A DNA stretch of 64,000 bases from an uncultured archaeon (lineage in GTDB: Archaea > Iainarchaeota > Iainarchaeia > Iainarchaeales > 1-14-0-10-31-34): contig CAYTYC010000004.1 in NCBI GenBank assembly GCA_964442255.1, positions 1,416-65,415 on the forward strand. The letters run 5' to 3'. Below, piece by piece: positions 15,472-64,000 of this stretch. Under the pieces are notes generated by a model. That model was not told where the DNA came from and did not search any database. It worked only from the letters and a program-made list of their open reading frames with translations. The first letter of the stretch is position 1; every line of letters starts with the position of its first letter. The position numbers and the translations under genes were made by a program.

Positions 15472-15543
15472 CATATTTATGGGGGATTCGACTGAAAGGA
15501 GAATCCCTCGACGTATCCTGGCGTAAACCGACAGTGGCGGTTT
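15472..15543. repeat. Conserved two-hairpin element (copy 2), immediately 3' of tRNA-Leu
   Basis: gcatatttatg-GGGGATTC(N11)GAATCCC-tcGACGTATcctggcGTAAACCGACAGTGGCGGTTTgc. Compare 3979-4052. Confidence 0.7.
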
Positions 15544-15658
15544 GCAGGGGGGAGGATTCGAACCCCCGAAGGCACTAAGCCACAGCGCCTAATCCCAATC
15601 AAACCCGTAGGTTACGATTGTCTGAACGCTGCTCGTTTGACCGCTTCGATACCCCTGC
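15543..15658 (-). tRNA. tRNA-Leu (anticodon CAG) with a ~32-nt intron and a long variable arm
   Basis: Reverse complement reads GCAGGGG-UA-UCG-AAGCGGUCAAA-CGA-G-CAGCG-UUCAGA[C..intron..]G-CGCUG-(UGGCUUAGUGCCUUCG variable arm)-GGGGG-UUCGAAU-CCUCC-CCCCUGC-A. A73 is the Leu discriminator. Confidence 0.75.
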
Positions 15659-33957: not shown

Positions 33958-33985
33958 CAGTTTTCAACCCTTTTTTCCGGCTTAA

Positions 33986-41290: not shown

Positions 41291-41473
41291 TGGTTTTACC
41301 TCGCAGAGTGAAGACCGTATATATTGTTCTTTGGACTCTTTTTATTACTTTCTTTCATTATGCCGCAGACTTTAGTGAACCTTTTTTTTAACAAAAAGGG
41401 CCTGAGGACTGAATTGTTATAAATAGAGTTTTGCCATTTAAAAGCCTTTGCCTTTCTTTTTGGGTGTTGGCGG

Positions 41474-47400: not shown

Positions 47401-49336
47401 GGTGCACGCCCGCTTCATTGAACCCCGAGCCCTTTGGAACCCTTAACTCGAGTTTTGCGGTGTATTTTCCCCCGGCATCCAGGAAATCCTCAGCCTGCAG
47501 GTTGCCTAACCACAATCCTTTCCACACGGCCTCAAACCTTTCAACCGCGCCGCTTAAAATTATTTCCTTTTCCATTACCGCGTCGTCCACCGCCTTGAAG
47601 GGCAGTGTCCTGTATGTTACGTATTCGTCTCCGCCAACCAAAAGGTAAACCGTTTTGTCCGCCCTTATGGAAGTGATTTCCTTTTTTCCGGTGGAGTCTG
47701 TCACTCCCCTCAAATTTGACAGTTCTTCGTCCGTGGAAGCGTCAAACACTTTTACTGTGACTCCCTGCAGCGCTGTTCCGGACTCGTTTTTCACGTTCAC
47801 TCTCACTGTTCCGCGGCCGATGCTTAACTGCAGAGTAACCTGTTTTACTTCCCTTTCCCTGAGGCTTACTTCTTTGTTGTTTCCCTGAAAGCCGGGTTTT
47901 TCCGCGTACACGATGTATGCGCCCGGCTGCACGCCCTCAAACCTGGCTGTTCCGTCAAAGCCTGTTGTAAGGACTTCCCCGACCAACGCGAATTCGTCCG
48001 CGGTTTTAAGCATTACCTTCACGTTTTCAACGGCTTCACCCTCTTCGTCCACCACCTTGGCCTCGATTGCCTGCTTAACCCCTTCCGGAACCGGCGTCAG
48101 TTCAACTGTAACTTCATCGTATACTTTTAGCCCGGCCAGGGTTTCCTTGTAGTAGCCGATTGCGTCAATGCTTGCATTGAATTCCTTGTCGTCCGCAACC
48201 GGAAATTCAACGGATCCCAAGGAATTAGTGTAGCGTTCGGTGAATATTCCGTCCCCGCTTTCAAATATTACTTCCGCCCTTTCAATTGCTTTCCCTGTTT
48301 CGGCGTCCAGAACCCTTACAGTTATTTCGCCGTTTACTCCTGCCCCAAGCATTATTTTCGGGAAGTGCTGGTAAAGGTTTCCGACAACTATTTCAACGTA
48401 TTCCTGTCCTTCTTTTTCGGAGTTAAAGCTTGCGTAATCCTTTGCGTTGTACGCGAAAACCCAGTAGGTTCCCTGGGAAATGCCTTCAATGAAGCAGCCT
48501 CCGCTGTAGTCTGTTTCGCAGAACCCCACGGAAATGCTTCCCCCCCTTTTCCTCAGGTTAACCGTTATTCCTTCCAATGGGCTGTCGTTTTCGTCCACAA
48601 CGTAAAAGTCAATGCTTCCTTTTTCTTCCCGGATTTCTTCTTTCAGGTAAATTGCCGGATTTGAGTCCTCCAATCCATAAGAGCAGGTGCCTTCGCATTC
48701 AAAGCCCGCCGGCTTTGCTGTAATCTTTCCGCAGTCTTCGGGCACGTCTTCCAAAGTCATCTGCCCGTTTGTCGTGGAAAGCCTTTCAAAAAACCCTTCG
48801 TTTTGCGAGCACGAGAATTCCGCGGCAATATAGCCTGTGTAAAGGGTCTGCGTGTTTCCCTTGTAGACCCTGAAAACAATTGTTTTCAGGCCCACTGCCT
48901 TCAATTCCACCAGTGTTTCCGTTTCGCTTAACGTGACTGTTTTTTCGGAGTAGCCTGTTGCGCTTACCGTGGCTTTTGCCTGTTTTCCTGCTTCGGCTTC
49001 AAATTTGATTGTTCCTTCCGCGTTTGTTGCGCCGGATTCCTTCATTTTGCCTTCAACGTATAGCGTGACCTTTGCGCCGGAAACAGGGTCAGCGCTTTCG
49101 TCCACAACTTTTATGAGATAGCTTGCGTTGAATCCCGGCAAACCGAATCCGAAGAAAAGGAAATATATTCCCATTGCAATGAGAACCCACATTAAAATGA
49201 ATAAAGGAAAGCTTGGAATGTTGCGGGACTCAAAAACGTCTATGAGCTTGAATACAGGGATTCCTTTCTTGTCCAATGCATCCATTAATCCGTAGTATTT
49301 GTCTTCCAGCCCGCGGTAAAAGTCCTTCAAGCCCAT
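41474..49336 (-). CDS. Giant surface protein 3 (2620 aa): the same N-module plus TM, CarboxypepD_reg-like repeats, a Tyr/Gly/Asn-rich prion-like tract, and coiled segments
   Basis: N-terminus MGLKDFYRGLEDKYYGLMDALDKKGIPVFKLIDVFESRNIPSFPLF. ~100-aa tract GYGMHQNYFGYNPLSTGAYYQNPNSYNNFY..YGGYQQPFYGGGYMDPAYSGLHGYG. The C-terminal part is partly alignable with giants 1 and 2 (FCDGAQYAVS). Confidence 0.85.
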   Translation of the reverse strand: MGLKDFYRGLEDKYYGLMDALDKKGIPVFKLIDVFESRNIPSFPLFILMWVLIAMGIYFLFFGFGLPGFNASYLIKVVDESADPVSGAKVTLYVEGKMKESGATNAEGTIKFEAEAGKQAKATVSATGYSEKTVTLSETETLVELKAVGLKTIVFRVYKGNTQTLYTGYIAAEFSCSQNEGFFERLSTTNGQMTLEDVPEDCGKITAKPAGFECEGTCSYGLEDSNPAIYLKEEIREEKGSIDFYVVDENDSPLEGITVNLRKRGGSISVGFCETDYSGGCFIEGISQGTYWVFAYNAKDYASFNSEKEGQEYVEIVVGNLYQHFPKIMLGAGVNGEITVRVLDAETGKAIERAEVIFESGDGIFTERYTNSLGSVEFPVADDKEFNASIDAIGYYKETLAGLKVYDEVTVELTPVPEGVKQAIEAKVVDEEGEAVENVKVMLKTADEFALVGEVLTTGFDGTARFEGVQPGAYIVYAEKPGFQGNNKEVSLREREVKQVTLQLSIGRGTVRVNVKNESGTALQGVTVKVFDASTDEELSNLRGVTDSTGKKEITSIRADKTVYLLVGGDEYVTYRTLPFKAVDDAVMEKEIILSGAVERFEAVWKGLWLGNLQAEDFLDAGGKYTAKLELRVPKGSGFNEAGVHLRTGKSADNTNNIIEKDSLHIKSATASDAVILKGTSYNPPKGHAVDSQHTTSGSAKWANIKWMDVDEGIMEIEAEIQVRDAARSGEKLEIHYRAWGERESVLRFPSDSVLGASKENSEKQALYARVKTEVYTLGPSNLCGKSFCSSFTMANIETGSETTVVESYPAEISGNYRLKFSLTSVGEEYSPDAKLEIKSENEGLKFGEYEVIDVTSAKSAGNADRFELTAPMGNISKGDTVQGWVNFKTMKEGTNNLNFQIVASGAGGENRVFSKNFRVKVEAVKEMELEMLPLMVVPFIKNNVILRFTDSGGKGIPGVRVDIKVNGEMAYSGVSDSEGVYTLTLERLEPGAELTIKAEKNGYKTVEQTVKLEPNVLSFTPEEITESLSVVEDFEVQRDVVVRSLTDLPLTIEAIEFSGDFTDYLRFRLLEQYVGAEIVKGLDYSIAFGLSLSPKGKALNEVRTVKGKILAYLANQETEKSFSIEVPIEVFIGLGGEVDDLECLVLTKEKWNILTGKETVGQSIVLINNCSVDGKSIALKNLQAKVLWNENPVGEFSVDADIQGSRRVDLTSKFRGLSESLPTNSETSLAFTFDPDVLKSAKGTARLIVQATNPTEQGLQEIKAEIEAEVSINDILECMEIRAIGSQRLEFGPYNLGYGMHQNYFGYNPLSTGAYYQNPNSYNNFYRLSNMDNPDWYSSSYYANTSIGSAGRSSDILYNNWNQLSFPYGGYQQPFYGGGYMDPAYSGLHGYGMANQGKFKAINNCGATVDIEVDSENLMVSPDSGTLEPKEETEFTVQPAYFFGEYPVHIRAGLAASEETKKDIDTLLYLVQSEYIRDYSDCITLNRRTFQFNSLFPKPQQGIITNTCFNQGVILKRDRPIKVEGLSFFESNLSDRGYREGAGVSAAGRTPTTIQEYLIADNVIIDEPPRTKIGPNGQATEEMVFSLIKVQDPTQYQKSVEKSIKDNVDPIGKLLRFRWELSDLYYRAWTPSMLKVYFTNRYGFEDYVPFRITVEDLWELASGLSGRVYYGNPDVSPEECIRNRFEFELGFTIDEYYFDGGTFKWKPSPPVLITERDAEKCGQQDRLRIWGQKAFEKDNIRVSFEEVDGGKNIELMVKKLGKTKGDMVGFEGSLHVKVIRPNPARVADVIMPFKVNVKGDGEGPGEWEDKTQDCYERVLDEANKRLDEIEGKADEIMKKLKECELPEEEKEKVRETVEEELGGLTPEERQAKIELLKQELREKIAGCEKEGAETGSGVITKYGFDRLLFEWDYGDLETLGKNICDSSVNENAMFCDGAQYAVSLDQKAKTIKEFTEKVENNDCIEDEWSETKVCEKNSNNLYRFAAAQKAITDDDPEGGRTQLAFFLDGETGRILRQPKPLRPSELEGVLDTEFAEAVLATAGDMPEEADATVERASRLLSEMKSAPAVDHLDIVAEVNTKGFTGDEIKTLKDLGAEQITGKYYVLTFNEFKAMHDRLENAMEDDRAACADWRSTPTTTYPPSGCCDALKENATVCRIAIIVEDDGKIAKAIDTPIAAQFLQKLYKGTSFKLGTRNKDFGEKEEEMKNEIIKKGKKVSGITTDEIDRLYNENITVNSYLMHEAYTKSLFGDFASTYKNIGGLGAPDTTLNGKNVEKLPPKEINAGEYKVNVNYLWGKAEEDKRKFEITFERLNLLKDIEGMEEYVKNFLFEMPFDGKVDGRFSSTPASSILPVTIYDYGVFTDNADSGAPEVELMDGAPLKTGVGGVMHFRVEFPQSLEETKTGTLLRIEKYGGTGGSGLIKYTPSNPVNIKAELEGGEKGKGFYYEITDISGHKVGEELEPMVEWLSAEGQFEDRIRNMAELCAGATEERHSVVISTEKSTGTTGLLALAFVPMKGQLKFSVLCSQGRAEASIVDFFNKNPREITHPGGTQPKEAVLSNANLSGETIKAMIDRIKNELVCFEPLDVRDGYATGLELSWNKEKVSTELKALLAKLEASK

Positions 49337-49443
49337 GCAATTCCTTCTGCAGAGTGAACCAATTAATTATTATGTAATGGTTTCTTTATTTATATATCTT
49401 TTTGTTGCCTTCCATTAATATTTCTTTTCTTTTTAAATGGGGT

Positions 49444-51318
49444 TTAATTTGGGTTTTCGTTGGGTGAACAGCCTCCCGGGCCCATATCTCCTATGTTTGC
49501 AGTTTCAAATAGGGAATAACAGGTCCACCCTTGGTTCGCATTGCATGCGGCTGTCGGGTTGTCTTTTGCGTCTTTGTCTAATGCGCAGGTGCCTGTATCC
49601 ACCCTTGCATAATAGTTTGGGTTGAATGGCTCAAATGTGTCCTTAAGCCTTATGTTGTATGCTACCCCTGTTTCGGCTTTATTTTTGTTGACAATATATT
49701 TTGGGTTTTTTTCCACAAACCTGAGGTTAACGGTTATCCTGTCCAGCTCTTCGCAGAATGCCTTCGGCTGATTTGTGAACCCTGTGCACTTAAATTCCGT
49801 TATATTTGGGTGGGTTATTTTGTCGTCTTCAGTGAGGAAAACCCCGACATCCTTATTGTAGGGGGTCATCGGACAGCCTGCATTTGTTTTGCCGTAGGGG
49901 TAATTTATGTTAAGGTAGTTTCCTTGCGTGGAGGGGGCCTGGGCTAAACTTATTTCAGAAGTGCTGACACTGTTTCCAGCCTGCTTAATTACTTTTGAGG
50001 GGGTTTGGTCAGTGGAAATGCTTATGCCGTAAAGAGGGCAGTTTTCCAGATATTCGTTCACGCCTGCTGCAAGTATGTCCCCCCCATTTATTTCCGTTCC
50101 GTTTCTTCCAATTAAAATATATCCGTCATCCTTGTCCGCGTTAAGGTATTCTCCCGTGTTATAATTTTCCACCGCAAGGTTGCAAAGCCTTCGCACAACC
50201 ATTTGTTTGATTGCATCCTCGGTAAGCATTGTGTCTGGCTCAAGGTTTCCTTGCACTTGGCTGAAAGACGCCTTGTCGCCTGGAAAGTAATAAAGGAAAA
50301 AATTCCCCACAATATCGCACATTCCAAGCGCTTTTAGTTCCTGGGTGCATGTTATGCCTGCTTGCATTATCTCTTCTGAGGGCGTGGTGGCAAACCTTTG
50401 GTCTCCCGGGCAGTATGCTCCGCTGCCTATTTCCTTTTCACTTGAGCTCAGGTAAGGGTGTTCGCGCCACCTGCAGCTGTCTATATCGCACAAGCCTAAA
50501 CGCATTTCCTCAAGTTCATTGTGAATGCGCGGGGAAAAAATTCCGTAGTTTTGTTTCCAAAGCGTGCCGGTTTCCCTGTTGTGCTCTATTGCCAGCGCCC
50601 TTGCCTCCGCAAACGCCTTGAATATTCTTACAGGCACGTAGATGCGCAGGTTTGTTCTCGGCATTATCGGCTCTTCTATCACCCGGTTTGTGCGAGTGTT
50701 TGTTACCTTTATTTTTGGGAACGCGTAATAGTCTTCAGCGCTCAGGTTTCTGGGATTCAGGTTAATGTAAAAGGTCCCAATGCATTTTTTGGGGTCGCCG
50801 TCTTCGCATCCCACGACCTCAATGAAGCTTTCTTTTGATTTGAGCATTTTATTCAATACTTCTTGAACTTTTCCCCTTTCCGCCTGGGTTGTTCCGGTAA
50901 GCTCTATCTGGAAAACCCCCACCTGCCTTTTGTACTGGTATCCTTTCACCAGCTCTTGGCTGAGAAAATATGTTAACGCCTGGGTGCTTTCATCTTTTTC
51001 GTTTTTCAGGCCAAAAAAAAAGGTTCTCGTGAACTGTTCCACCAATTCATCCCATGTGAGTTCCTGGAACGCAAAGCTTGCCCCGTTTGTGCTGAGCCAG
51101 TCCTCTATTTCAAACCTGACCTGGTAGTTGAAGAGCTGGATTGCGTCCGCCCTTGTCAAGTCCACGATTGCCTGCATTTCGCTTTGCTCTTCAATGTCTG
51201 AAATCAGCGCAAGCTTGTCTGCCTCCGCTTTCACCATGCTTTGCACAACGACAACACTCAAAACAATCAGCACAAAAGCCACCAATGCGGTGAACAAGGT
51301 GAAGGCTTTTTCTTTCAT
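49444..51318 (-). CDS. Large (624 aa) pilin-like protein with an archaeal class III (prepilin) signal peptide; Cys-rich globular body
   Basis: N-terminus MKEKA|FTLFTALVAFVLIVLSVVVV: a K-A at -2/-1 followed by a ~20-aa hydrophobic stretch, as in PibD/FlaK substrates. At least 8 Cys pairs. Embedded between giants 3 and 4. Confidence 0.6.
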   Translation of the reverse strand: MKEKAFTLFTALVAFVLIVLSVVVVQSMVKAEADKLALISDIEEQSEMQAIVDLTRADAIQLFNYQVRFEIEDWLSTNGASFAFQELTWDELVEQFTRTFFFGLKNEKDESTQALTYFLSQELVKGYQYKRQVGVFQIELTGTTQAERGKVQEVLNKMLKSKESFIEVVGCEDGDPKKCIGTFYINLNPRNLSAEDYYAFPKIKVTNTRTNRVIEEPIMPRTNLRIYVPVRIFKAFAEARALAIEHNRETGTLWKQNYGIFSPRIHNELEEMRLGLCDIDSCRWREHPYLSSSEKEIGSGAYCPGDQRFATTPSEEIMQAGITCTQELKALGMCDIVGNFFLYYFPGDKASFSQVQGNLEPDTMLTEDAIKQMVVRRLCNLAVENYNTGEYLNADKDDGYILIGRNGTEINGGDILAAGVNEYLENCPLYGISISTDQTPSKVIKQAGNSVSTSEISLAQAPSTQGNYLNINYPYGKTNAGCPMTPYNKDVGVFLTEDDKITHPNITEFKCTGFTNQPKAFCEELDRITVNLRFVEKNPKYIVNKNKAETGVAYNIRLKDTFEPFNPNYYARVDTGTCALDKDAKDNPTAACNANQGWTCYSLFETANIGDMGPGGCSPNENPN

Positions 51319-51333
51319 CAGCTAAAACCTTTC

Positions 51334-54300
51334 CTAAGAGACTGCGCCTTCAATTGATTTGCCCTCGTTTTTGGCAATGCTGCCCATTTTGCTTAACACT
51401 GTTGTGGAGTATTCTATTGCGGCGTTTTTGATGATTTTGCATTTTTCTATTGCCCCTGTGCCCCCGTGGTATGCCCCTATCGCCAATGCAAGGGGGTCGT
51501 CGCAGCCCTTTATGTCATCTTGCTGCAGCAGGTGCTTCACAATATCTGTTCCGACTTCAATGTTTACGGTCTCATCAAACCACAATTCTTTTGGAATTGC
51601 CTTGCCTTTTCCTTTGTAGTTTACCCTTGCAGGAAATGTCTTAACTCCCGGAACTTCAATTATCATTGTGCCTGTGTCACGGTAGCCGTAAGTGTCTTCC
51701 CCGTCTTTTGCGTACTTTTTGACTGAAGGCAGGCTTGTGTCGTTGAACCAGTAAGGCATTATCTGCATTAACCCCGTTGCCCCTGTTTCCGTGTTTACCG
51801 CAAACCTGTTTCCGCTGCTTTCGGTTTCAATAATGCTTTTAATCAAGTCCTCGCTTACTCCCGCGGCCTTTGACGCGCTTTTGGTTTTCGCATCCTGGCT
51901 TGAGGTTGTCCTGTTTATTTCCATTTCCTTTGCTTCAAATTCGTTCCCGCACTTGTCCAGCCTGTTGCTTGTGCTTTGGATTTCGTCACTGCTTGTCACC
52001 AGCCAGAACTGCAGGCACTTGTCTTTTCCTTCCAGATGCCTTACCCCGTAAGTGAAGTTTTTCTGGAACTCGAATTCTTTGGCTGTAAGCTCAACCGGCA
52101 CTCCGTTTATGGTTTGCAGCCCGGTTGGTTCGCAGTATCCTCCCGGGCTTTGCACTCCTTCCGCGCCCCAATACCATTTGAATGCCTCGTATCCCGCGGC
52201 TTCTCCCGCCGCCAGGCACCCGAATCCGCGGATGAATCTTGAAAGGTTTGGGTGGTTTGCCCAGAGCCTTCTCCACCTGCTCACTTCCGCGGCTTCTCCC
52301 CGCACAATCCATTTCTTGCTTTTTCCGACCTTTTTTGCTACGTCTTCAAGCCCGTCTGCCGCTGTTGTGTAGTTCCTGTTTCCAACCTGGTCCGTGACTG
52401 TTTTCATGGACTTCCTGATGCTTTTTTCCCCGTCCATGTTTGTGTGGTCCAAAATTTCCTTGAGCTCGCTTGCCTCCCTGTTCAGGTTGCTTATCACCGC
52501 GTTCCTTGCGTCATCCACTGCAACCGTTCCAACCAAGTCCCCTTCCTTCAGCAAGCCTTTTTTTACCAGGTCGTCTACAACCCCTTGGTGGGCTCTTGAA
52601 GCGTTTTTAAGCCTTCCCGCTTCGTCCACCAGGTTGTCGTACTGGGTTTGCATTTGGGGGCTGATTGCCTGCCTCCCCCTCCCTTGGGTTAAGTTATCCA
52701 TCTGTGTTTTTAGGGCTGCTTCCTGTTTTTCAAGGGATTCAAGGCCTATTCCTGTGTTGTCAATCAGGGTGAATTTTCCCCCCGCATCCGCTGTTATATT
52801 CATGTACTGTCTTCCGGTTACCGGGTCGGTGAAACCGCCAAGCTTGGCGTTAATCCCTGACGCCACTTTTGCCCCGCCCTGCAGGCTTTCAAGCCTGCCT
52901 TTGATTGCGTCTTTGGCAAACTCTGACGGCGCCAGAACCTGGTCAACGCCAGGGCGAATTGTTTTCCATGCCTGCCTTGTGCCCCCTGTGGCCAGGCTGG
53001 TTGAAACCATGTCTTCAATGATTTCTTTTCCCGTGTCATCCAAATTTCCCACCAAAAAGTCAGGCAGCCAGGAGTTCCCTCCCTCGGCTTTAACCGCTTC
53101 ATCAAGTATGAGCTTTTCCTCCCCTTTAACGAAGTTAACCAAATCCTTTATCTTGCCCCACGTGAAGTCCACGATTTTGTCAAAGCTCAAGTCAACGTTC
53201 AAGTATTCTTTAATCAGGCCTACCGCTACAGGCGGCCCGCAGGTGAGCAGCAGGCAGTCCACAACCGCGCCCGGAATAAACCCCAGCTTTGTAATTACGG
53301 CGCACCCTCCGCAGCCCACAAAGCATCCTGCACCCCATGCGGCTATGGACGTCACCCTTTTGCTGCTCTCCGCCTTAATGAGTTCGCTTTTCGGGTCAGT
53401 TAATTTGTTTTTCCTTAACTGCGAGTACACGTCAGCCAAGTTTACCTTGTCGTCCCCGCCGTCCCACACAAGTGTCGCGTAATAAGGCTCTTCTCCCACA
53501 GGAGTCTTGTATGCTTCCTCCAAAAACTCTAATGGAGTCAAACCGCACAGCATTAAGTCTATTTCCCTGAATTCTTCCATTGAATAAGGTCCATGCAGGT
53601 CCTCTGCCTTCAATTTAATGCTTTTTTCGGTTGCCTCCTGGAAGTCCGCCCCTCCCCTGATGCACAACTGGAAGTGATAATAGTAGCGCTTGCTTGCCTT
53701 GTCAAACTTTGCCAAATTAACCGTAAAATCGCGGTCTGTTTCAGTCAGCCTGAATGCAGGCTTTTCGCCTTTCCTTTCATATTCCCAGACAATTTTTTCC
53801 CCTGTTTTGGCTTCCTCGCCTTCCTTCGGCGCCTCTGTTTTTTCCGCAGTTTTTGCAGTTGTCTTAACCTGTTTTGCGCTTGCATCCCACACTTCAATGT
53901 ACTCCAGCCCAGGAATTTTCGCGCTGTCTTCATCAAACACCAAGTCAAATTCCCCTGAGGAAAGGTTTGACAGCACTCCATTAACGCAGGTTTCCTGCAT
54001 TGAAACCTGCATGCTTCCCGGAACCTCCAAACGCGGAACAAATTCTTCAACCCTTTCTGCGCTGCTTACAACAAAAAAGCTTTCATCCCTTGAAATGCAC
54101 GCATCACCCAGCTTTGAATTCCATAGGTTTCCCAGAATTCTTGCGGTTTCCTCTATCAGCTTGTCTTCCCCGCCTTCAACGCTTTCCGAGGCTTCAACTG
54201 ATTTCCTGCTTACCGTGACATACACTTTTTTCGGGTTTTCAGCCGAAAAACCCGGCTTCACTTCAATCTTCATCAGCCCGTTGAAGGGCACTTCCCCCAA

Positions 54301-57300
54301 CTCCAGTTCAACCGTGTTTCTGCTTCCCCCCCCGCCGAGCCGGCCCTCGCTTTTTCCGAAAAGCTTTTCCGCAAACTTTTCCTCAAATTTTTTGGTTGAA
54401 GAATCTTTTCCGTCAACCATTGTCAGCCAGCTTTCGTATGCGGACTCTGAATTGTATTTTTTGTCCAAAGGCAAAAAGTTCGGGGCATTCTGCGCAACGC
54501 TCTTGCATTCAGGGGTTTCATCGGCGTCAACCAGCCTGAACACGACAACAATTGATTCGGTGTCCAGCCTGTCTCCTTCAACCCCCACCGCGCCTGTTGT
54601 CGTCAGCTTGTATCTTCCGCATCCCGCCAAATCCCCGGGAATGTAAATCCTGCTCAAAAGCCCGATTCCTGCAACCCCAAAATCGCCTTCCCCGTACCTT
54701 ACATCAAAGTTTTCAAACTCGCTTGACTTTAAATCGTCGATTTCTTTTTTCAGCATTTCCCTGCTCAAATTGTCGTGCGAAAGGAAAACCTCCAGGCTGT
54801 CTGCCTGAATGTTCATTGACTCAAACGTGCAGTAGCCCTGCCTTGGGTCGCAGCCCTGAACATTTAATGTGGTGTTTGCGAGTTCGGTTACCCTTCTCTT
54901 TGCCTGCACTATCTTGTCTTTTGCCTTCTTTGCGATGTAACCCGCCATTCCCTGCGCGTCACAGTATCCTTCATGGCAGTCTGTTGAAAGCTTGGGGAAG
55001 CTTATTTTTTTTGTTTCAGAGTCCCGGTCCTCGCATATTGGCACCTCTATTTCAGGCATTGCCCTGCATTTTCCGCCGGAACAGCTTGTCGCGCTTTCCC
55101 CCACCTTCAATGAAATGTTCACGGGCTCTGATTTAATGAGTTCGCGTGTCACCTGCCCTACTCCCAGAACGGAAACAGGCCTGCTTACGTCAATGCTTTC
55201 TGAAGGGTAAACAGTTAATTCGAAATCGTCCCTGCCTGTCTGGGGCGGCAGCACTTCCCCGTCCGGGTAAATTTCAATGTAATTGTTTCCAATGTACTTG
55301 GGCTCCATTTCCCCTATCACAACGGGTTCCTGGCAAAAGTTTTTGATGCTAACAAAGCGGGTGATTGCCTCAAACGACTTTTTTGTGTCTGTCTCAAAAT
55401 TCAATGGCTCCCCGGGAAGGGTTTGAAGGGAGAGGCAGTGCCAGTCCGACACATGGAAGTAAACCGGAACGCTCCAAAGGTTTGTGTAGTGCCTGCCCTC
55501 AATGTTTCCGTTTATAACAAGGTTTCCGAGATGGGTTGAGCTTTTTTCAGTGTTTGCTGTTGCCACAACGTATGCGGGGGGAATGGATTGCCCTTTTTTC
55601 AGCAAAGGAAACTCGTTCCTTGGCTCTATTTTGACGTCCACTCCCGGAATGTGCTGCTCCAATGCCATTGTAATCTCTGAAACATCCGCGTTTCCGCGGT
55701 TTGAAATGAACAGCATTGCCCTGCCTATCCCTGTTTTTTGCCTTTGGCTTTGAGTAATCCATATGTGCAGGTTGTCGGGCACAAACAACGCAATCTTTGG
55801 GTTCCATAAAATGATTTTCAGGGGAATGCTTTTACTTATCTGCGGGCTTTTAAAGAACACATCATAGTTGTACTGCTGCTGGAGGTCAAACATCGTGGGG
55901 AAAGTGCTCACCAGCTCCAAACTGTACTGGTGGGGTTTTCCGTCCGCCTCCAAACGGAAGGTTCCAGCGTAAACCTCAACCCCCGGCGCCTCTTTTCCTT
56001 TTGGAAGGGCTTCCGGGGAAAAATTCAATGGAACCCCGCAATTGTTTTTCATCAGGATGTCCAAAGTTTTCCGGTTTCCCTCCGCCCCGACCAGGTAAGC
56101 CTGGAGTTCGCTTGAGTCAAACTCCAAACAGCTTTCCTTGAGCCTTTGATTGTAGTTAACCTTTACCCTTGTTTTTGCGGCTACAACGTATTCCCCGTTC
56201 ACGAGCCCCGTGAATTCAACGTCTGCCTCGCCGTGCACTATTTTTTCCTCGTTTCCCGTGTATTCCGCGGTGAACCCAATTTTTCCTGTTTCCCTTGGGC
56301 CTAATTCCGCCGGGGGAAGCGCGCTTAAAATGAGTTCATCCGGCCAGTTTTTCGCGGGAACCACTTCAGCCGCAATCCCGCTCACCGGAAGGGTTAAGGT
56401 GTTCCTTATTGTTTCCTCAATTCTCACAACCTTTTCCCCGAAAGGCATGTTCAACAAAATTTTTTCCTCAATCTTTAATCCTTCTTTTGCCCCGACCATG
56501 AACCCTTTTTCCACGGGCCTGAATCCCGGTGCCTCAATTCTTGCGGCGTATTTTCCGGGTTCCAGTGAATTCTTGAACCTGTACACCCCGTCCCTTCCGT
56601 TTCCGGTTGAGCCGTCCCCAAGCATTTCCGCAGCGGTTTCCCCGTCAGCCGAAATTATCCGGATTTTCGCGTTTTCCACCGGCCTTCCAAGGGAATCCTT
56701 AAGCGTTATTTTGATTTCTTCTCCCGCATTCACGAAATCCTCCAGCTCAATGTCCAGTTCCGCTTCCCTGAACACAGCGAAAAACAATTCATCTTCAATG
56801 CCTTCGTTTCCTAATTTGGCTTCGCTTCTGATGAAGGCCTCCCCTTCCTTTATTCCCTTGAAATAGAATCTCGCGGTTTTAGGGGTTCCCCGTGAAAGCG
56901 AAATGTTGTTTGCGGTGAGCGCCTGCAAAGGGTTTTCGTTGTCCGCAAAATTGGATGCGCCTGAAAGGCTGTAGGAAGTGAAAACAACTTTTGGCACGGA
57001 GTCAGATGTTGAAACCCTCAAATTGACTGAAAGGTTTTCCGCTGCCACCATTTCCGCTTCAAGCGCGTACACTTCGCCCAAGCCCGCGGAAAACTCTTTT
57101 TCCCCGAACCTTCCGCCTTCTTTTGTCAAAAACATGTGGGTTATGCACAGTTTTTCCTTGCACAACGGCTCGGACTCAAACACGCTTACTTTTTCTGAAA
57201 TTGTTTCCGCATACAACGCGGATTTTTCCCTGCTTACTTTTTCGCTTCCCAGCACCTGGTCTTCGGGAGTCCGGGCAGTTAGGCCGTTGAATTCCGCCCA

Positions 57301-59529
57301 CGTGCGGTAGTTTACTTCAAAGCTCTCTTCCCCAAAGCCTTCCCTTGCCTTCACCCTTGCCCTCACAATTTTTGTTCCGCCCGGGTTTTCAAAGTAAAGC
57401 TCCAGAAACTTGCTGAATTCCCCTGCTTCTCCCTCGTTTCTCCTGTCAATGGACTCGTTTCCGGGCGAAGGAAAGGGCTGGTATGTCTGGCCGAAGAAAA
57501 AGTTGTCCGCAACCGCGTCAAATCCCGTCACTCCAACCGTGTCGGATTCAATGTAAGGGACCGTGTCGTTTCCCACGCGCACATGCATTCCGCCTTTGTA
57601 TTCGCCTTCAATCCACTGCGTTTCAAATTCAAGGTAATAGTCTTTTCCTTTCACTATTCCTTTCACTTCGTTTCCGTCCTCGTCCAGTATCCTTGCAAGC
57701 CTTATCTTCGGCTTTAATTCAAGGTGCTGTTCTTTGTTCAATTCCATTTCCAGTTCCCTGTTTTTCCCTATCTGCCTTAATTCCGAGTGCGTTGTCCCGT
57801 CGGGCAGCGAAACCTCCACCACCGCCTCATTGTAGCCTATTGAGTCAAACACAACTGACCCCTCTTCGATTGGGCCGTCAAACAATACTGTGCCGTCTTT
57901 TGCGCTGACCAAAACGTTTCCGTCTTCAATCACATTCCCGTTTTCGTCCTTCAACACCAGCGTTTTCACGGTGTCAGGCACCTTTAACTGGATTATCAGC
58001 TCATTCAGTTCCGGTTCAATTGTTTTCTGCGCCTCCCCTTTTTCCAGTTTCCAGAACCCTTTTACCCTGATGTTTTTTCCTGCTTCCATGGTGGTTTCAT
58101 GGCTTCCGTCCAGCCCTGTGCTCGCAATTCCCAGGCCCAAGGGAAACTCTTCCTGTTCTTCCCCTTTTAGTTCATAGAACTGCAGGGTTGCATTCACCGC
58201 GGGCTTTTGCCCGGAGGTTATGGCGTGCACAATCAGTTCAGCCGAATTTTCAATTGTCGCCTTTTTCAATTCAATGTCCGCGCTTTCCTGCGCCAACGGA
58301 ATCACTTCAATCACTTTTGGAAGGTAGCCTTCCTTCACGGCGCCGATGAAGTATTTTTCGTTGACGTTCAGTCCCCCGAATTCCACGAAGCCCCCGAAGC
58401 CGGTTTCCTTTGTTTCCAGCACCTTGTTTTCCAAGCCGTAAAGAGTCACTTCCGCGGAGTGCAAAAGGGTTTTTGTGTCTTCGTCCATTACTGCGACAGT
58501 AAATTGTTCTCCGCCTTTTTCCAGGAAAATTTCTTTCACTGTTTCCTCTCCGCGCAATGTAACAAACTCTTCCTCTGAATCCTCGTATCTCACATACCCG
58601 TCCTTTTCAACACTTACCATTACCACTGTGCCTTTTTTCAGGTAACTTGAATAGATTCCGTCGTCGTCTTCCTCCGATTCATCCAGTTTCTTGAAGCTTT
58701 CCCCGTCAAAAATTCTGATGTTTGCGCCTTCCACCAGGCTTTTTGTTTCCGAGTCAAACACTTTTACTATCAAATTGGTTTCGCCCTGGAGTTCCGCGGG
58801 TTTCGGCGCAAGGGAAATTGTCCTTAACTCCGTTGACTCAAAGCGGATTTTCTGGCTTAAATCCTCATACGAATCGGCGGTGACCTCAACCAGTATTTCC
58901 TCTTTTTTAGGCAGGTTCACCAGTTCCGCGATTCCGTCTCCTCCGCTTACCGCGTTCCTTACCTCGGCCTTCCAGCTTGCCGTCACCAAAACGCCTTCAA
59001 TTGCCGTGTCTTTTTCCGAGTCAATGAACCGCAGCTTTCCGTTGATGTAGCCGGTTTCCATTCTTTCAAGGAAAAGGTTTGCGGTTACGTTCACCGAATC
59101 CAGGTCAAGCAGTTCCGAGTCTTTTTTAAATCCCTCTTTTTCCGCTTCCACGGTTACAGTGCTTCCGATTGGAATTCCTTCAAGCAGTATCGCTCCGCCG
59201 TTTGACCCGGGTTCAGGGCCGTAAATGGTTTTCCCGGTTTCGTTTTTCACGGAAACCATCGCCCCGCTAAGCCCTTTTCCTTCGTCGTCCACGATGTTCA
59301 TCGCGATTGAAACGTTTGCCGCCGCAAAATTAAAGTAAAAAAACCCAAGCAAAATGAACAGGATTATCGCAATCAATGCGATGAACACAGGGAAAAAGGG
59401 AATTCCGCGGTTCTCGAACAGGTCAACGATTTTGTATACCGGCAATCCCTTGTCGTCCAGGAAATCCATTCCCGCATAGAATTTGTCCTCTATTTTTGCG
59501 TACACTTCCGCAAGCTTGCCTGAAATCAA
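51334..59529 (-). CDS. Giant surface protein 4 (2731 aa): the same N-module plus TM, CarboxypepD_reg-like repeats, coiled region, and a C-terminal family-1 lytic transglycosylase (SLT/GH23) domain; TTG start
   Basis: N-terminus (TTG)ISGKLAEVYAKIEDKFYAGMDFLDDKGLPVYKIVDLFENRGIPFFPVF plus TM. C-terminus ..ETESSGNRFAVNTETGATGLMQIMPYW...AIGAYHGGTG matches the SLT catalytic motif (ES..N..A.S..GA.GLMQIMP...AYNAG). Confidence 0.85.
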   Translation of the reverse strand: MISGKLAEVYAKIEDKFYAGMDFLDDKGLPVYKIVDLFENRGIPFFPVFIALIAIILFILLGFFYFNFAAANVSIAMNIVDDEGKGLSGAMVSVKNETGKTIYGPEPGSNGGAILLEGIPIGSTVTVEAEKEGFKKDSELLDLDSVNVTANLFLERMETGYINGKLRFIDSEKDTAIEGVLVTASWKAEVRNAVSGGDGIAELVNLPKKEEILVEVTADSYEDLSQKIRFESTELRTISLAPKPAELQGETNLIVKVFDSETKSLVEGANIRIFDGESFKKLDESEEDDDGIYSSYLKKGTVVMVSVEKDGYVRYEDSEEEFVTLRGEETVKEIFLEKGGEQFTVAVMDEDTKTLLHSAEVTLYGLENKVLETKETGFGGFVEFGGLNVNEKYFIGAVKEGYLPKVIEVIPLAQESADIELKKATIENSAELIVHAITSGQKPAVNATLQFYELKGEEQEEFPLGLGIASTGLDGSHETTMEAGKNIRVKGFWKLEKGEAQKTIEPELNELIIQLKVPDTVKTLVLKDENGNVIEDGNVLVSAKDGTVLFDGPIEEGSVVFDSIGYNEAVVEVSLPDGTTHSELRQIGKNRELEMELNKEQHLELKPKIRLARILDEDGNEVKGIVKGKDYYLEFETQWIEGEYKGGMHVRVGNDTVPYIESDTVGVTGFDAVADNFFFGQTYQPFPSPGNESIDRRNEGEAGEFSKFLELYFENPGGTKIVRARVKAREGFGEESFEVNYRTWAEFNGLTARTPEDQVLGSEKVSREKSALYAETISEKVSVFESEPLCKEKLCITHMFLTKEGGRFGEKEFSAGLGEVYALEAEMVAAENLSVNLRVSTSDSVPKVVFTSYSLSGASNFADNENPLQALTANNISLSRGTPKTARFYFKGIKEGEAFIRSEAKLGNEGIEDELFFAVFREAELDIELEDFVNAGEEIKITLKDSLGRPVENAKIRIISADGETAAEMLGDGSTGNGRDGVYRFKNSLEPGKYAARIEAPGFRPVEKGFMVGAKEGLKIEEKILLNMPFGEKVVRIEETIRNTLTLPVSGIAAEVVPAKNWPDELILSALPPAELGPRETGKIGFTAEYTGNEEKIVHGEADVEFTGLVNGEYVVAAKTRVKVNYNQRLKESCLEFDSSELQAYLVGAEGNRKTLDILMKNNCGVPLNFSPEALPKGKEAPGVEVYAGTFRLEADGKPHQYSLELVSTFPTMFDLQQQYNYDVFFKSPQISKSIPLKIILWNPKIALFVPDNLHIWITQSQRQKTGIGRAMLFISNRGNADVSEITMALEQHIPGVDVKIEPRNEFPLLKKGQSIPPAYVVATANTEKSSTHLGNLVINGNIEGRHYTNLWSVPVYFHVSDWHCLSLQTLPGEPLNFETDTKKSFEAITRFVSIKNFCQEPVVIGEMEPKYIGNNYIEIYPDGEVLPPQTGRDDFELTVYPSESIDVSRPVSVLGVGQVTRELIKSEPVNISLKVGESATSCSGGKCRAMPEIEVPICEDRDSETKKISFPKLSTDCHEGYCDAQGMAGYIAKKAKDKIVQAKRRVTELANTTLNVQGCDPRQGYCTFESMNIQADSLEVFLSHDNLSREMLKKEIDDLKSSEFENFDVRYGEGDFGVAGIGLLSRIYIPGDLAGCGRYKLTTTGAVGVEGDRLDTESIVVVFRLVDADETPECKSVAQNAPNFLPLDKKYNSESAYESWLTMVDGKDSSTKKFEEKFAEKLFGKSEGRLGGGGSRNTVELELGEVPFNGLMKIEVKPGFSAENPKKVYVTVSRKSVEASESVEGGEDKLIEETARILGNLWNSKLGDACISRDESFFVVSSAERVEEFVPRLEVPGSMQVSMQETCVNGVLSNLSSGEFDLVFDEDSAKIPGLEYIEVWDASAKQVKTTAKTAEKTEAPKEGEEAKTGEKIVWEYERKGEKPAFRLTETDRDFTVNLAKFDKASKRYYYHFQLCIRGGADFQEATEKSIKLKAEDLHGPYSMEEFREIDLMLCGLTPLEFLEEAYKTPVGEEPYYATLVWDGGDDKVNLADVYSQLRKNKLTDPKSELIKAESSKRVTSIAAWGAGCFVGCGGCAVITKLGFIPGAVVDCLLLTCGPPVAVGLIKEYLNVDLSFDKIVDFTWGKIKDLVNFVKGEEKLILDEAVKAEGGNSWLPDFLVGNLDDTGKEIIEDMVSTSLATGGTRQAWKTIRPGVDQVLAPSEFAKDAIKGRLESLQGGAKVASGINAKLGGFTDPVTGRQYMNITADAGGKFTLIDNTGIGLESLEKQEAALKTQMDNLTQGRGRQAISPQMQTQYDNLVDEAGRLKNASRAHQGVVDDLVKKGLLKEGDLVGTVAVDDARNAVISNLNREASELKEILDHTNMDGEKSIRKSMKTVTDQVGNRNYTTAADGLEDVAKKVGKSKKWIVRGEAAEVSRWRRLWANHPNLSRFIRGFGCLAAGEAAGYEAFKWYWGAEGVQSPGGYCEPTGLQTINGVPVELTAKEFEFQKNFTYGVRHLEGKDKCLQFWLVTSSDEIQSTSNRLDKCGNEFEAKEMEINRTTSSQDAKTKSASKAAGVSEDLIKSIIETESSGNRFAVNTETGATGLMQIMPYWFNDTSLPSVKKYAKDGEDTYGYRDTGTMIIEVPGVKTFPARVNYKGKGKAIPKELWFDETVNIEVGTDIVKHLLQQDDIKGCDDPLALAIGAYHGGTGAIEKCKIIKNAAIEYSTTVLSKMGSIAKNEGKSIEGAVS
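51337..51870 (-). other. SLT (soluble lytic transglycosylase, GH23) catalytic domain at the C-terminus of giant protein 4
   Basis: E-S catalytic dyad context ..IIETESSGNRF.., the GLMQIMP motif, and the downstream AYHGG motif. Confidence 0.75.
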
Positions 59530-59647: not shown

Positions 59648-59962
59648 TTAAATTGTAATGCCGCTTTTCAGGGCTTCGCTTACAATGGAAACCTGCCTGC
59701 TCAATTTTTTGAATTCTTCCGGGGTGTAGCAGAGGAAGTCAACCGGATAATCTAAACGCCAGTGCCTGTGCAGGCCTTCTGCTCTTCCGAATTTTTTTCT
59801 CTTAAAATAAGGGGAAACAATTATTAGGTCTACATCGCTGTCTTTGCGGTGCCTTTTCCCTGCCCTTGAACCAAATAAAATGACCCTTTCCACTTTCCTT
59901 TTTTCAGATACCTCTTTTTTGAATTTTTCTATCCCTTTGATTAAAGCTTCTCTTTCGCCCAT
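59648..59962 (-). CDS. Nucleotidyltransferase (MNT) antitoxin-like protein
   Basis: ILFGSRAGKRHRKDSDVDLIIV matches the minimal nucleotidyltransferase motif G[SG]..x9-13 D.D; 104 aa. Confidence 0.7.
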   Translation of the reverse strand: MGEREALIKGIEKFKKEVSEKRKVERVILFGSRAGKRHRKDSDVDLIIVSPYFKRKKFGRAEGLHRHWRLDYPVDFLCYTPEEFKKLSRQVSIVSEALKSGITI

Positions 59963-60294
59963 TTCAACACCTTTTCGGATTTTCTTATGGCTTCCTGCAC
60001 GCTTGTTTTTTCAAATTTGGCGTAAGTGTCCGGGTACCTTGTTTCAATGTAGAACGAGCTGATTTCATCGCAGATGTCCAGCAAATGTTTGGGGACTTCA
60101 ACTTTTTTCCCAAGGAAATAGAGGTCATGGGTTTTGAACAGTTTCCTGAATCTTTTGATGTACAAAGCCTTTAACGCTTTTTCAACTGCCTGCTGGCAGA
60201 AAAAAGCCGCGGCATCGAAAACATTTTCCCTGAAATTAATCTTTGCGGTATTCAAATCGTGCTCTGCTTTTTCCATCCATTCCTTTGGCTCCAT
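59941..60294 (-). CDS. HEPN-domain protein (toxin-like partner of the MNT gene)
   Basis: 117 aa, all-helical, with the ETRYPDTY motif in the HEPN R-x(4-6)-H position. Overlaps the MNT gene by 22 nt. Confidence 0.65.
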   Translation of the reverse strand: MEPKEWMEKAEHDLNTAKINFRENVFDAAAFFCQQAVEKALKALYIKRFRKLFKTHDLYFLGKKVEVPKHLLDICDEISSFYIETRYPDTYAKFEKTSVQEAIRKSEKVLKWAKEKL

Positions 60295-60339: not shown

Positions 60340-60915
60340 TTAAGCCTTTTGGCTTCCATTAATTCCGCGCCTGCGCTTGCGCGGCTTTTTAACCTTTTTC
60401 ACTCCGGCGGCAAGCCAGTACCATGCCCCATAAAACCCCGCAATAACAACAATCAGTGAAACCCTGAACAAAACATCGTGCGTGAAAACCGCTGTCTCAA
60501 CACTTGAATTAATTAAAATATTTATGCTCACAACAATCCTGGCCAAATTAAAAATGTTGACTCCAACAAACGCCGCAACAGCCCCGTACAGTTTTTTTCT
60601 CCATGAAATAAATGGAGTCGCAGCAATTGCGGAAACCAAAACAACCAACTCCAAAATTCCTGTGCACAATTCCCCTATTTCCACCTTAAAATCCCGGAAA
60701 TCAATCAGCACAGGCTCTGCCGCAGAGGCAATTGTGCCGTGCGCCCCAAACAAATTCATCAAAAAAATCACGGCTTGTGCAACCGCAAGCTCGCTCCACT
60801 CCAGCGGAACAACAAAATAGAAAATTCCGTACAGTACGGCAAAAACCGCCATGAGAAAAACCAAAAACTTTGCCCCGCGGAGCACTTCTTCTTTGCTGAA
60901 ATCCATTTTCACCAC
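60340..60915 (-). CDS. Small archaeosortase/exosortase-family membrane protein
   Basis: 191 aa with ~5 TM helices. Cys in a TM helix within EIGELCTGILEL (the C-[ST]-G motif), conserved Arg (NLARIV), and a basic C-terminal tail. Confidence 0.5.
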   Translation of the reverse strand: MVKMDFSKEEVLRGAKFLVFLMAVFAVLYGIFYFVVPLEWSELAVAQAVIFLMNLFGAHGTIASAAEPVLIDFRDFKVEIGELCTGILELVVLVSAIAATPFISWRKKLYGAVAAFVGVNIFNLARIVVSINILINSSVETAVFTHDVLFRVSLIVVIAGFYGAWYWLAAGVKKVKKPRKRRRGINGSQKA

Positions 60916-62335: not shown

Positions 62336-62449
62336 GCAAACACATGTCCTTCAAGCCGCATAAAAGGCTTTCGCCCTGTTTTTGTTTCACGGTTTTTCCT
62401 TTACAGTAATGAATTAATATAACTTTCACCTATTTTTAATGGATTTTTC

Positions 62450-64000
62450 ATGAAGATTGGCGGATTCAGGGTAGGCGACTATGCAGTCAAGGAAGAAGGC
62501 GGAAAACGCCACCTGATTTTTGACTGCAGGGACTGCGTGTACGGGACTTCAATTGCCGATGATAAGGCGTGCAGGTTTCATGCAATAAAGGTTTTGGGCC
62601 GGGTTGAAGCAGACCTCCTCGTGCTTGCGGACGTCTATGAAAGGGTTTACGGCAAGGAGCAGACCTCTGAATTGATTGAACTGGGAAACCTTGCCGCAAA
62701 GTTTGAGCTTGAAACCCCTTGGAGTTATTCCCATTTGGGCTACGATATTGGGGACACGCAAAAGCATTTTCCGCAAAGGCATGACACAATTGTTTCCATT
62801 ACACAGGAGCTTGTCGGCTTTGACCCTGTGCTGGGGTACCTTTCCTGCCTCCGGGAAATCAAGAAAGAGAAACTGCTGTTTGAGCAGTCTTCAGGGGATT
62901 ACGCGGAAGCCACAAAAGCATACCTCACCACCCTGCTTGGAATAAAGAAGTCTTTTGAGGAAACTTCGCTGATTAAAAAAGTGAAAAACTGGCTGATTAA
63001 GTTAAAGGAAATCCCGGAAACAACCCAGCTTTACCACACCTTGTTTGAGGCGGAAATAAAGCCTTCCTTTATCGGCTCAAGGCTGATGTTTGAGAAAACC
63101 GAGTCGCTTGAGCTTTTGGACGAATACACCGTTAAAAAGGCAACCGTGCAGGTTTACGCGCACCCCAACAAAACGGAAAAGCTTTACTTCATTAATCCCC
63201 CTGAATATTCCCTTCCGCCCGAAAAATACTTTGTTTTAAGCAAAACCAAGGAGGTTGTCGCGGGCTACAAGCCGGGAAAAACTTCTTTAAGCCAGATAGC
63301 GAAAAGCAGGAAATACTTTGAAAGGGTTTATGAGGCAACAATCTCTGACATCGCGCAGGAAAACAGCATTTCCTTAAGCAAGGCGGAAGTAAGGGAGCTT
63401 GCCGGAATTGTCGCCCGCTACACGGTGGGATACGGAATCCTTGAAATCCTTTTAAGCGACAGAAAGCTGACAGACATTTACATGGATTCCCCGATCGGGC
63501 AAAAGCCATTGTATGTGGTTCACGCTGACTTCGGGCAATGCCAAAGCAACGTGCTTTACACTGAAACAGAAGCCGACGCCCTGGTTTCAAAGCTCAGGGC
63601 AATGAGCGGAAGGCCTTTTGACGAGGCCCACCCTGTTCTGGATTTTGACCTCCCAAACCTTGAAACAAGGGTTGCTGTCATTGGCGAACCCCTTTCCCCT
63701 GACGGGGTTGCATTCGCTTTCCGTTTGCATAAGGTAACCCCGTGGACTTTGCCGCAGTTCATTGACGTCAAATACCTTTCCCCGCTGGCTGCAGGCTTAA
63801 TGTCTTTTTTTGTGGACAACCAGGCAACCATGCTTGTGACAGGCTCCAGGGGTTCGGGAAAAACCTCCATGCTCGCTTCACTCATCCTTGAAATTCCCCA
63901 GAATTCCCGCATTCTGGTGCAGGAAGACACACTTGAGCTTCCCGTGAATTACATGAAGGAAATTGGCTTCAACATCCAGCGCCTTAAAACCAGGTCCCCT
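62450..64000 (+). CDS. FlaI/GspE/VirB11-family secretion ATPase (archaeal type IV filament assembly ATPase), 5' portion; it continues past the window end
   Basis: Translated by hand with no stop for 517 codons. Walker A is LVTGSRGSGKTSML and the Asp box is ILVQEDTLEL. The ORF is absent from the track only because it lacks a stop within the window. Confidence 0.75.
   Translation, partial: MKIGGFRVGDYAVKEEGGKRHLIFDCRDCVYGTSIADDKACRFHAIKVLGRVEADLLVLADVYERVYGKEQTSELIELGNLAAKFELETPWSYSHLGYDIGDTQKHFPQRHDTIVSITQELVGFDPVLGYLSCLREIKKEKLLFEQSSGDYAEATKAYLTTLLGIKKSFEETSLIKKVKNWLIKLKEIPETTQLYHTLFEAEIKPSFIGSRLMFEKTESLELLDEYTVKKATVQVYAHPNKTEKLYFINPPEYSLPPEKYFVLSKTKEVVAGYKPGKTSLSQIAKSRKYFERVYEATISDIAQENSISLSKAEVRELAGIVARYTVGYGILEILLSDRKLTDIYMDSPIGQKPLYVVHADFGQCQSNVLYTETEADALVSKLRAMSGRPFDEAHPVLDFDLPNLETRVAVIGEPLSPDGVAFAFRLHKVTPWTLPQFIDVKYLSPLAAGLMSFFVDNQATMLVTGSRGSGKTSMLASLILEIPQNSRILVQEDTLELPVNYMKEIGFNIQRLKTRSP

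Follow-up and report, generated by a model that had tools for sequence, protein, structure and literature searches.

A minimal exosortase/archaeosortase-family protein in a type IV pilus-like gene cluster of Iainarchaeota, with two paralogous tail-bearing proteins as plausible substrates

Introduction

Archaeosortases and exosortases determine the anchoring or release of surface proteins. DPANN archaea rely on cell-surface contact, and the biogenesis of their surface is, to our knowledge, almost unknown. The window analyzed here, a 64-kb stretch of contig CAYTYC010000004.1 from an uncultured archaeon, encodes on its minus strand a polytopic protein of 191 residues, a row of giant surface proteins, and two small secreted proteins that end in similar tripartite tails. 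The initial annotation of this DNA took the first of these for a minimal archaeosortase/exosortase and proposed that, together with the two small proteins, it makes up a sortase-substrate system with a variant recognition motif. The coordinates, the minus strand, and the sequences of the three open reading frames (ORFs) agree with that annotation. The giant-protein genes, which it had set aside, are the conserved operon partners of the enzyme in other genomes, and this operon context is the new element reported here.

Family Membership and Predicted Structure of the Sortase-Like Protein

The 191-residue protein scores 38.4 bits against TIGR04178, the signature model of exosortases and archaeosortases (cutoff 23, E-value 1.1e-9), along profile positions 1-94 of 97. 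A match to PF09721 was already on record, as a precomputed result, for the public gene call P0001. The public gene calls start at an ATG at position 60906, three codons after the GTG start codon used here, and yield a protein of 188 residues. A homologue search based on a word index returned one relative only. When 1.84 billion cluster representatives were searched exhaustively with HMMER, 349 relatives came up with E-values of at most 1e-3 (40 at 1e-30 or better), nearly all of which are 160-220 residues long. The TIGR04178 model is passed by all of the 52 relatives that were aligned.

Membership in a named subfamily is a different matter. The hidden Markov models (HMMs) tried on the 191-residue protein were those of ArtA-F, XrtA/F/G/H/M/S/W/X/Y, pacearchaeosortase, heimdallarchaeosortase, and the cyanoexosortases, and it reaches the cutoff of none. 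Its best partial matches are to XrtH (29 bits against a cutoff of 86), XrtX (24.1 against 170), XrtG (23.9 against 102.75), and ArtD (23.6 against 125), followed by heimdallarchaeosortase (19.3 against 130) and pacearchaeosortase (16.9 against 80). None of the 52 clade members comes near a subfamily cutoff: the best E-value, 2.9e-14 with XrtX, is estimated to correspond to ~50 bits against the required 170. The XrtX model is weakly matched by 46 of these members, and TIGR04125, the ArtA model, by three, also weakly (E-value 2e-4). The protein is a genuine member of the exosortase/archaeosortase superfamily and belongs to a clade without a curated subfamily model, which is found mainly in Iainarchaeota. 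This enzyme assignment is solid, yet unsurprising.

The candidate active-site residues are Cys84, Arg126, His146, and Arg151. In the alignment of the 52 relatives, the first three are invariant, as are Leu83, Gly86, Glu89, Gly111, Asn123, Phe150, and Tyr162, and Arg151 is kept in at least 90% of the sequences. Cys84 sits in the context ELCTG; the initial annotation had picked out a cysteine in a CTG context and a conserved arginine. ArtA of Haloferax volcanii requires Cys173, Arg214, and Arg253 (PMC9263693), and its Cys-to-Arg spacing of 41 residues compares with 42 in the 191-residue protein. The latter is probably an active enzyme.

The AlphaFold2 model built from the family alignment has a predicted local distance difference test score (pLDDT) of 92.8 and a predicted TM-score (pTM) of 0.83. 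It displays five helices of transmembrane (TM) length, at residues 8-35, 38-55, 87-98, 105-136, and 139-169. Cys84 immediately precedes the third of them, and a three-stranded sheet (residues 60-80) comes before this Cys-bearing helix. Two basic clusters, WRKK (residues 105-108) and KKVKKPRKRRR (C-terminus), would be cytoplasmic according to the positive-inside rule, and Cys84, Arg126, and His146 would then lie on the outer side of the membrane, at the level expected for the motif of a tripartite signal. The view of the protein as a minimal archaeosortase/exosortase is borne out by the family signature, the three invariant residues, and this confident five-helix model.

The Conserved Gene Cluster

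A scan of one genome per species yielded 20 loci with sortase homologues, at 33-42% identity. Twelve are from metagenome-assembled genomes labelled Candidatus Iainarchaeum (phylum Iainarchaeota, DPANN), and the other eight are labelled archaeon or uncultured archaeon. One of the eight, LFW-281_4, is listed in its source paper as Diapherotrites, the older name of Iainarchaeota. All-against-all BLAST of the ORFs of these loci reveals a conserved gene cluster around the sortase homologue. In its usual order, two secretion proteins of ~770 residues are followed by one to three pilin-like proteins of ~200 residues, the sortase, a giant protein of ~2,700 residues, and a pilin-like protein of ~570 residues.

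The ~770-residue pair is formed by a T2SSE secretion ATPase (67.1 bits in locus L019, cutoff 24.9) and a T2SSF-like platform protein whose score is sub-threshold (20.5 bits against 25.2). The ATPase is present in nine related loci, and the ATPase encoded at the edge of the window is its orthologue. The ~200-residue proteins carry class III, pilin-type signal peptides, as exemplified by MDSKGQAFSTFQLLIAAIVAV. The ~570-residue protein also has a pilin-type N-terminus (RKGFTLFTALV) and is homologous to a 624-residue protein of the window, homologues of which come after the giant gene in seven other loci. Altogether, 28 small and 8 large pilin-like ORFs show an N-terminus of the class III type (KGQAFSTFKLLIAA, RKGFTLFTALV). 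T2SSE, T2SSF (the latter below threshold), and proteins with class III signal peptides are encoded together, as is expected of a type IV pilus-like locus.

Downstream of the sortase gene, 16 of 21 loci encode a homologue of the giant, without exception on the sortase strand, and nine of them leave a gap of at most 75 nt between the two genes. Of the five exceptions, L017 and L020 break off too early downstream for a verdict, and L005 offers 2.6 kb only. The contigs of the closest sortase relatives are all 4.3 kb or shorter. Locus L031 (43% identity) repeats the order seen in the window, with the sortase gene, a toxin-antitoxin pair, and the giant gene in succession. The sortase gene is a conserved operon member, together with the giant gene, inside a type IV pilus-like cluster.

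The C-termini of the pilin-like proteins show patterns of their own. Most of the ~200-residue ORFs upstream of the sortase gene in loci L004-L022 (e.g., L019 8092..8727 and L021 2358..2990) end with CC, about five hydrophobic residues, and R/K, as in CCLVALRFVK or CCLIALKYSS. A second family ends with P-x-I-C-A-Y-[RK]-[RK]. Both C-terminal stretches are too short for TM anchors.

Layout of the Window and the Giant Proteins

The window presents a divergent form of this cluster. On the minus strand, the sortase gene is followed by a HEPN/nucleotidyltransferase pair, a giant gene, the gene of the 624-residue pilin-like protein, and three further giant genes, and the ATPase gene is transcribed in the opposite direction (Table 1).

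Table 1. Features of the 64-kb window that are discussed in the text.
Feature	Coordinates	Strand	Size (residues)	Evidence and remarks
Minimal exosortase/archaeosortase-family protein	60340..60915	-	191	TIGR04178, invariant residues, AlphaFold2 model
HEPN-domain protein, half of a HEPN/nucleotidyltransferase toxin-antitoxin-type pair, between sortase and first giant	59941..60294	-		Pfam HEPN 105 bits
Minimal nucleotidyltransferase, partner of the HEPN protein	59648..59962	-		Pfam NTP_transf_2 49.6 bits
Giant surface protein, downstream partner of the sortase gene	51334..59529	-	2,731	CarboxypepD_reg 76.6 bits, SLT 45.6 bits
Type IV pilin-like protein, class III signal peptide MKEKAFTLFTALVAFVLIVL	49444..51318	-	624	No Pfam match
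Giant paralogue, N-terminal anchor and Ig-like repeats	41474..49336	-	2,620	
Giant paralogue	33986..41290	-	2,434	
Giant paralogue	26596..33957	-	2,453	
T2SSE secretion ATPase (PilB/ArlI class), N-terminal part, divergent, runs off the window at 64000	62423..64000	+		31 bits, cutoff 24.9
Small secreted beta-rich protein, Sec-type signal peptide, candidate sortase substrate	18507..18986	-	159	Tail VPEIGAI, TM helix, RKKTR, encoded at 18507..18584
Paralogue of the preceding, signal peptide, candidate sortase substrate	21960..22466	-	168	Tail VPEISAI, TM helix, RKK, encoded at 21960..22031

The giants are arrays of immunoglobulin (Ig)-like and prealbumin-like domains (CarboxypepD_reg, Big_1, SpaA). 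All of them possess a conserved N-terminal segment of ~45 residues (…EDKWY…KGIPVY…RGIPSFP…) located before a single TM helix. In the 2,731-residue giant, the conserved cytoplasmic segment and its TM helix are followed by repeats of the Ig-like and prealbumin-like types, and an SLT lytic-transglycosylase domain lies toward the C-terminus. The initial annotation had stated that the giants lack the tail of the small proteins, and this holds for all four: the sole TM helix of each is N-terminal, and a C-terminal tail is missing.

The N-terminal segment (e.g., 59380..59529, minus strand) is cytoplasmic, displays the twin motifs KGIPVY and RGIPSFP, and has no Pfam match. In most loci, its "RG-IPSFP-hydrophobic" stretch looks like a class III signal peptide whose leader is very long. 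Three of the four window giants, however, have Val or Asn instead of the Gly of this stretch.

The four tandem paralogous giants (2,434-2,731 residues) occupy, with the 624-residue gene, positions 26596..59529 of the minus strand, and most related loci show a single giant in the sequence covered. The array looks like a lineage-specific expansion of an adhesin-like family. The SLT domain, at residues ~2551-2601 of the sortase-proximal giant, would represent an activity of the peptidoglycan-cleaving type in an archaeon and may hint at an interaction with bacteria. It was considered as a conserved feature of the cluster and rejected, BLAST finding this region in no other giant.

At the site where the window has its HEPN/nucleotidyltransferase pair (59648..60294, minus strand), locus L031 harbors a ParE-type toxin-antitoxin pair (1636..2103). 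Toxin-antitoxin modules seem to land repeatedly at this intergenic site between sortase and giant.

Two Small Proteins with Tripartite Tails

The tails of the 159- and 168-residue proteins are VPEIGAISLACLIVVVLYLLRKKTR and VPEISAIALVLVVAGILIVLRKK, respectively. Both are tripartite and located at the extreme C-terminus, with a short motif, a TM helix, and a basic cluster, and both proteins combine them with an N-terminal Sec signal peptide and a beta-rich middle part. The spacing from the Pro of the motif to RKK is identical in the two tails. The original description, of two small secreted beta-rich proteins with near-identical tails, proved accurate in coordinates and sequences. Their designation as "CARDB-like" fared less well: the Pfam CARDB model (PF07705) gives 16.9 bits with the 159-residue protein, below its cutoff of 22.7, and no match with the other. 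A structure model of the tail protein is unusable (pLDDT 51), and a C-terminal helix (residues 136-158) appears in this low-confidence model.

The two proteins are homologous over their full length (31% identity, E-value 5e-10), so that their shared tail counts as one evolutionary observation and not as two. Between the paralogues, 6 of 7 residues are conserved in the motif, 3 of 3 in RKK, 3 of 13 in the TM core, and 27 of 107 in the beta domain, so that the TM core fares no better than this domain, the regions having been picked after viewing the alignment. A motif and a basic cluster conserved against a diverged TM core would be easier to understand for a recognition element than for a plain anchor, which makes a sorting signal plausible.

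Within the window, the back-translated pattern V-P-E-I-x-A-I, 13 residues, R-K-K has exactly two matches, which are the two tail genes, for an expectation of 0 (100 shuffles). Detectors of this tripartite layout, both generic and lenient, found no further such tail on a real gene among the ~20,000 codons of the window.

A tail protein of another kind is encoded in locus L014. This 205-residue secreted protein (9274..9891, plus strand) ends with a TM helix and a basic tail (…NPSILPILLIATLIVAILFRRELK…), and its gene overlaps the start of the sortase homologue. It was considered as a relative of the window tail proteins and set aside, as it is not homologous to them. It may be a substrate particular to that lineage, with a motif of another kind.

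Proposed Role of the Enzyme

From family membership, residue conservation, predicted fold, and synteny, a scheme can be proposed for catalysis, topology, substrates, and the fate of the cleaved protein. Cys84 and the pair His146/Arg151, at the outer ends of helices 3 and 5, respectively, would form an active site on the external face of the membrane together with Arg126, which would lie in the outer part of helix 4. The enzyme would cleave surface proteins that are held in the membrane by a helix beside a short motif, and the cleaved proteins would be either released or passed to a lipid or another acceptor. It may be the surface-protein transpeptidase of the cell, co-expressed with an attachment apparatus and acting on tail-bearing proteins such as the window pair. 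Whether additional substrates or the principal ones, these would be cut close to VPEI, at the outward end of the C-terminal helix.

The conserved operon, with its pilin-like genes, giant gene, ATPase, and platform protein, argues for a primary role of the enzyme in building a cell-surface attachment apparatus, and this role is the most likely one given the gene context. The PEI-tail proteins are the sole window proteins with a canonical signal for such an enzyme and are plausible substrates, an assignment that we put forward as a hypothesis. The overall best explanation, with a probability of about 0.6, is that of a minimal five-helix enzyme of the superfamily with its primary role in the attachment apparatus and the PEI-tail proteins as plausible substrates. 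Cleavage of the PEI tails by this enzyme, all scenarios taken together, falls somewhat short of even odds.

Several observations weigh against this explanation or parts of it. The synteny is not universal, as loci L008 and L015 have room downstream of the sortase gene and yet no giant homologue there; the flanks of L015 encode a 2,524-residue ORF without a BLAST link to the giants. In L028, the closest relative (48% identity), the sortase gene is followed by a different large protein with a Sec signal, cut by the contig end. The giants and the pilin-like proteins show no signal of the motif/TM helix/basic type, either C-terminal or internal. The tight operon linkage argues for a functional tie to the pilus and giant-adhesin apparatus, and the sequences suggest no mechanism for it. 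PDB sequence and fold searches with the sortase-like protein gave no meaningful match, which leaves the clade without an experimental or structural reference. The remaining points concern the tails and are best taken with the rival explanations.

A first such explanation is a strict pair, in which the tail proteins are the purpose of the enzyme and its adjacency to the giants is incidental. It builds on the canonical tripartite tails and Sec signal peptides, on the conservation of motif and basic cluster but not of the TM core, and on the presence of an intact family enzyme on the same contig. The VPE start recalls PEP-CTERM and PEF-CTERM, whose models give 14.6 bits (cutoff 16) and 13.5 bits (cutoff 23), both sub-threshold, with the tail of the 168-residue protein alone. 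The tail genes are located 38-42 kb from the sortase gene, a distance that counts against a pairing, and substrates of known systems are often encoded far from the enzyme gene. Genomes with ArtA carry from 1 to 52 PGF-CTERM proteins (PMC6098224).

The distribution of the tail is the main difficulty of such a pair. The carriers found are two paralogues only and no panel of unrelated proteins, and common ancestry alone could account for what they share. A PEI-type tail is absent from the ~270 kb around the 20 homologous sortase genes, where both generic and loose scans were applied. A metagenome scan with the back-translated, exact-spacing tail pattern found no real tail, a weak negative given the strictness of the pattern; its five matches are due to chance, as they lack a TM helix and are not located at a C-terminus. 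Searches of 5.8 billion proteins, which rely on shared 5-mers, returned nothing but the two proteins themselves, with the 168-residue protein as well as with the two-paralogue profile as query. These counts cover the 64-kb window, the 20 related loci, the metagenome pattern scan, and the protein searches, and they amount to absence of evidence. A restriction of the tail to the two paralogues, which the initial annotation had named as a sign of simple duplication, is what was found in this material. Moreover, 16 of the 21 loci place a giant next to the sortase on one and the same strand, which is not incidental. The strict pair is accordingly doubtful.

In a second explanation, the tails would simply anchor the C-termini in the membrane and escape cleavage altogether, the small proteins would stay in place as type I membrane proteins, and the enzyme would act on other targets only. 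The curated CTERM models speak for it: none of PEP-, PEF-, PGF-, or Loki-CTERM is matched above its cutoff by the full proteins or by the tails alone. The tail of the 159-residue protein reaches 11 bits with Loki-CTERM (cutoff 19.9) and matches neither PEP-CTERM nor PEF-CTERM. The confinement of the tail to one paralogous pair also fits plain anchors. So do the 20 related loci, in which three C-terminal anchors only were found, with motifs unrelated to the PEI tail; they include those of L012 and L014 and give no clade-wide signal. Against plain anchors stand the selective retention of VPEIxAI and RKK relative to the TM core, within the limits of regions chosen post hoc, the identical spacing, and a motif that starts like those of PEP-CTERM and PEF-CTERM. 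We consider uncleaved anchors rather unlikely.

The sortase-substrate system of the initial annotation therefore stands for its enzyme part; its pairing with the PEI tails is not established, the tails being below the CTERM cutoffs, borne by two paralogues, and far from the gene.

A third explanation, that the enzyme processes the giants by a non-canonical signal and cuts just outside their N-terminal anchor helix for release or handover to the pilus machinery, would draw on the tight, conserved operon linkage, on the ~45-residue segment and single TM helix common to all giants, and on the sequences FPEIIS after the helix of one window giant and SPEIAL in the L004 giant. For ArtA, processing of a tripartite signal at a place other than the C-terminus is documented by Abdul Halim et al. 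2017, as cited in PMC9263693. This processing of the giants is quite improbable, since the alignment shows no conserved motif in the residues just outside the helix, the helix orientation is opposite to that of every known exosortase/archaeosortase signal, the family offers no precedent, and chance alone would yield about five PEI tripeptides among the ~20,000 residues of the window (an estimate from amino-acid frequencies). It is likewise a long shot that the minimal archaeosortase is integral to a type IV filament machine, in which it would process or covalently couple giant adhesins or pilus components via a signal that resembles no C-terminal sorting domain known so far.

Comparison with Known Systems

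The experimental work drawn on for comparison is that on haloarchaeal ArtA and on a few bacterial exosortases. Like ArtA of H. volcanii, the window enzyme belongs to the superfamily of polytopic membrane cysteine transpeptidases, passes TIGR04178, and has its Cys and Arg conserved at a similar spacing. Its candidate substrates resemble PGF-CTERM proteins in combining a Sec signal peptide with a C-terminal motif, TM helix, and basic residues. In contrast to ArtA, the window enzyme is far smaller, with 191 residues and five helices, the motif is VPEI and not PGF, and the processing of substrates is a prediction. The context also differs, being a type IV pilus-like/giant-protein operon instead of S-layer glycoprotein biogenesis.

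In size, the enzyme is closer to XrtX, XrtH, XrtG, XrtM, ArtD, and pacearchaeosortase, the profiles of which have ~150-190 positions. XrtH, XrtX, XrtG, and ArtD are also its best partial matches. However, it scores far below the cutoffs of XrtX, XrtH, XrtG, ArtD, and pacearchaeosortase and is hence a member of none. Judged by its model name, pacearchaeosortase presumably comes from a DPANN lineage as well. We know of no small Xrt or Art subfamily that has been described as linked to pilus or giant-protein operons.

The PEI tails share with PEP-CTERM (bacterial exosortase) and PEF-CTERM (archaeosortase C) the tripartite structure, the V-P-E start, a similar length, and the terminal Arg/Lys cluster. 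They differ by an Ile, in place of Pro or Phe, as the third motif residue, by their occurrence on two paralogues and not on a panel of unrelated proteins, and by missing the HMM cutoffs.

With archaeal type IV pilus loci, the cluster shares an ATPase of the PilB/ArlI class (T2SSE) and a platform protein, which is TadC/PilC-like, as well as several small proteins whose class III signal peptides are of the K-G-Q-A-F type. Unlike them, it includes, as conserved members, a gene of the exosortase family and a ~2,700-residue, N-terminally anchored Ig-repeat protein. Sortases and DPANN both go unmentioned in a survey of archaeal type IV pilus systems from 2016 (PMC4858521), and a 2019 paper documents divergent type IV pilus loci in DPANN without mention of such an enzyme (PMC6393860). 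The literature searched contained no description of an archaeosortase in DPANN pilus or giant-protein loci, nor of the present clade.

A compact sortase clade with intact catalytic residues, 349 sequence clusters, and no curated subfamily model is now defined. Its consistent place in a pilus/giant-adhesin operon provides a testable handle on how these archaea build their attachment apparatus. The contexts of the family would thereby widen past exopolysaccharide (EPS) loci and S-layer anchoring. Should the VPEI tail be a true signal, it would be a new C-terminal sorting signal that could be converted into an annotation model. Should the enzyme be part of a filament machine, a hybrid sortase-and-pilus pathway would build the apparatus by which these cells attach to others.

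Other Features

Two tRNA predictions complete the window. ARAGORN places a 68-nt tRNA-Ala(GGC) at 15543..15610 on the minus strand, without Rfam support. Rfam, in turn, finds a 92-nt tRNA at 6642..6733 on the same strand, which is missed by ARAGORN and is probably intron-containing.

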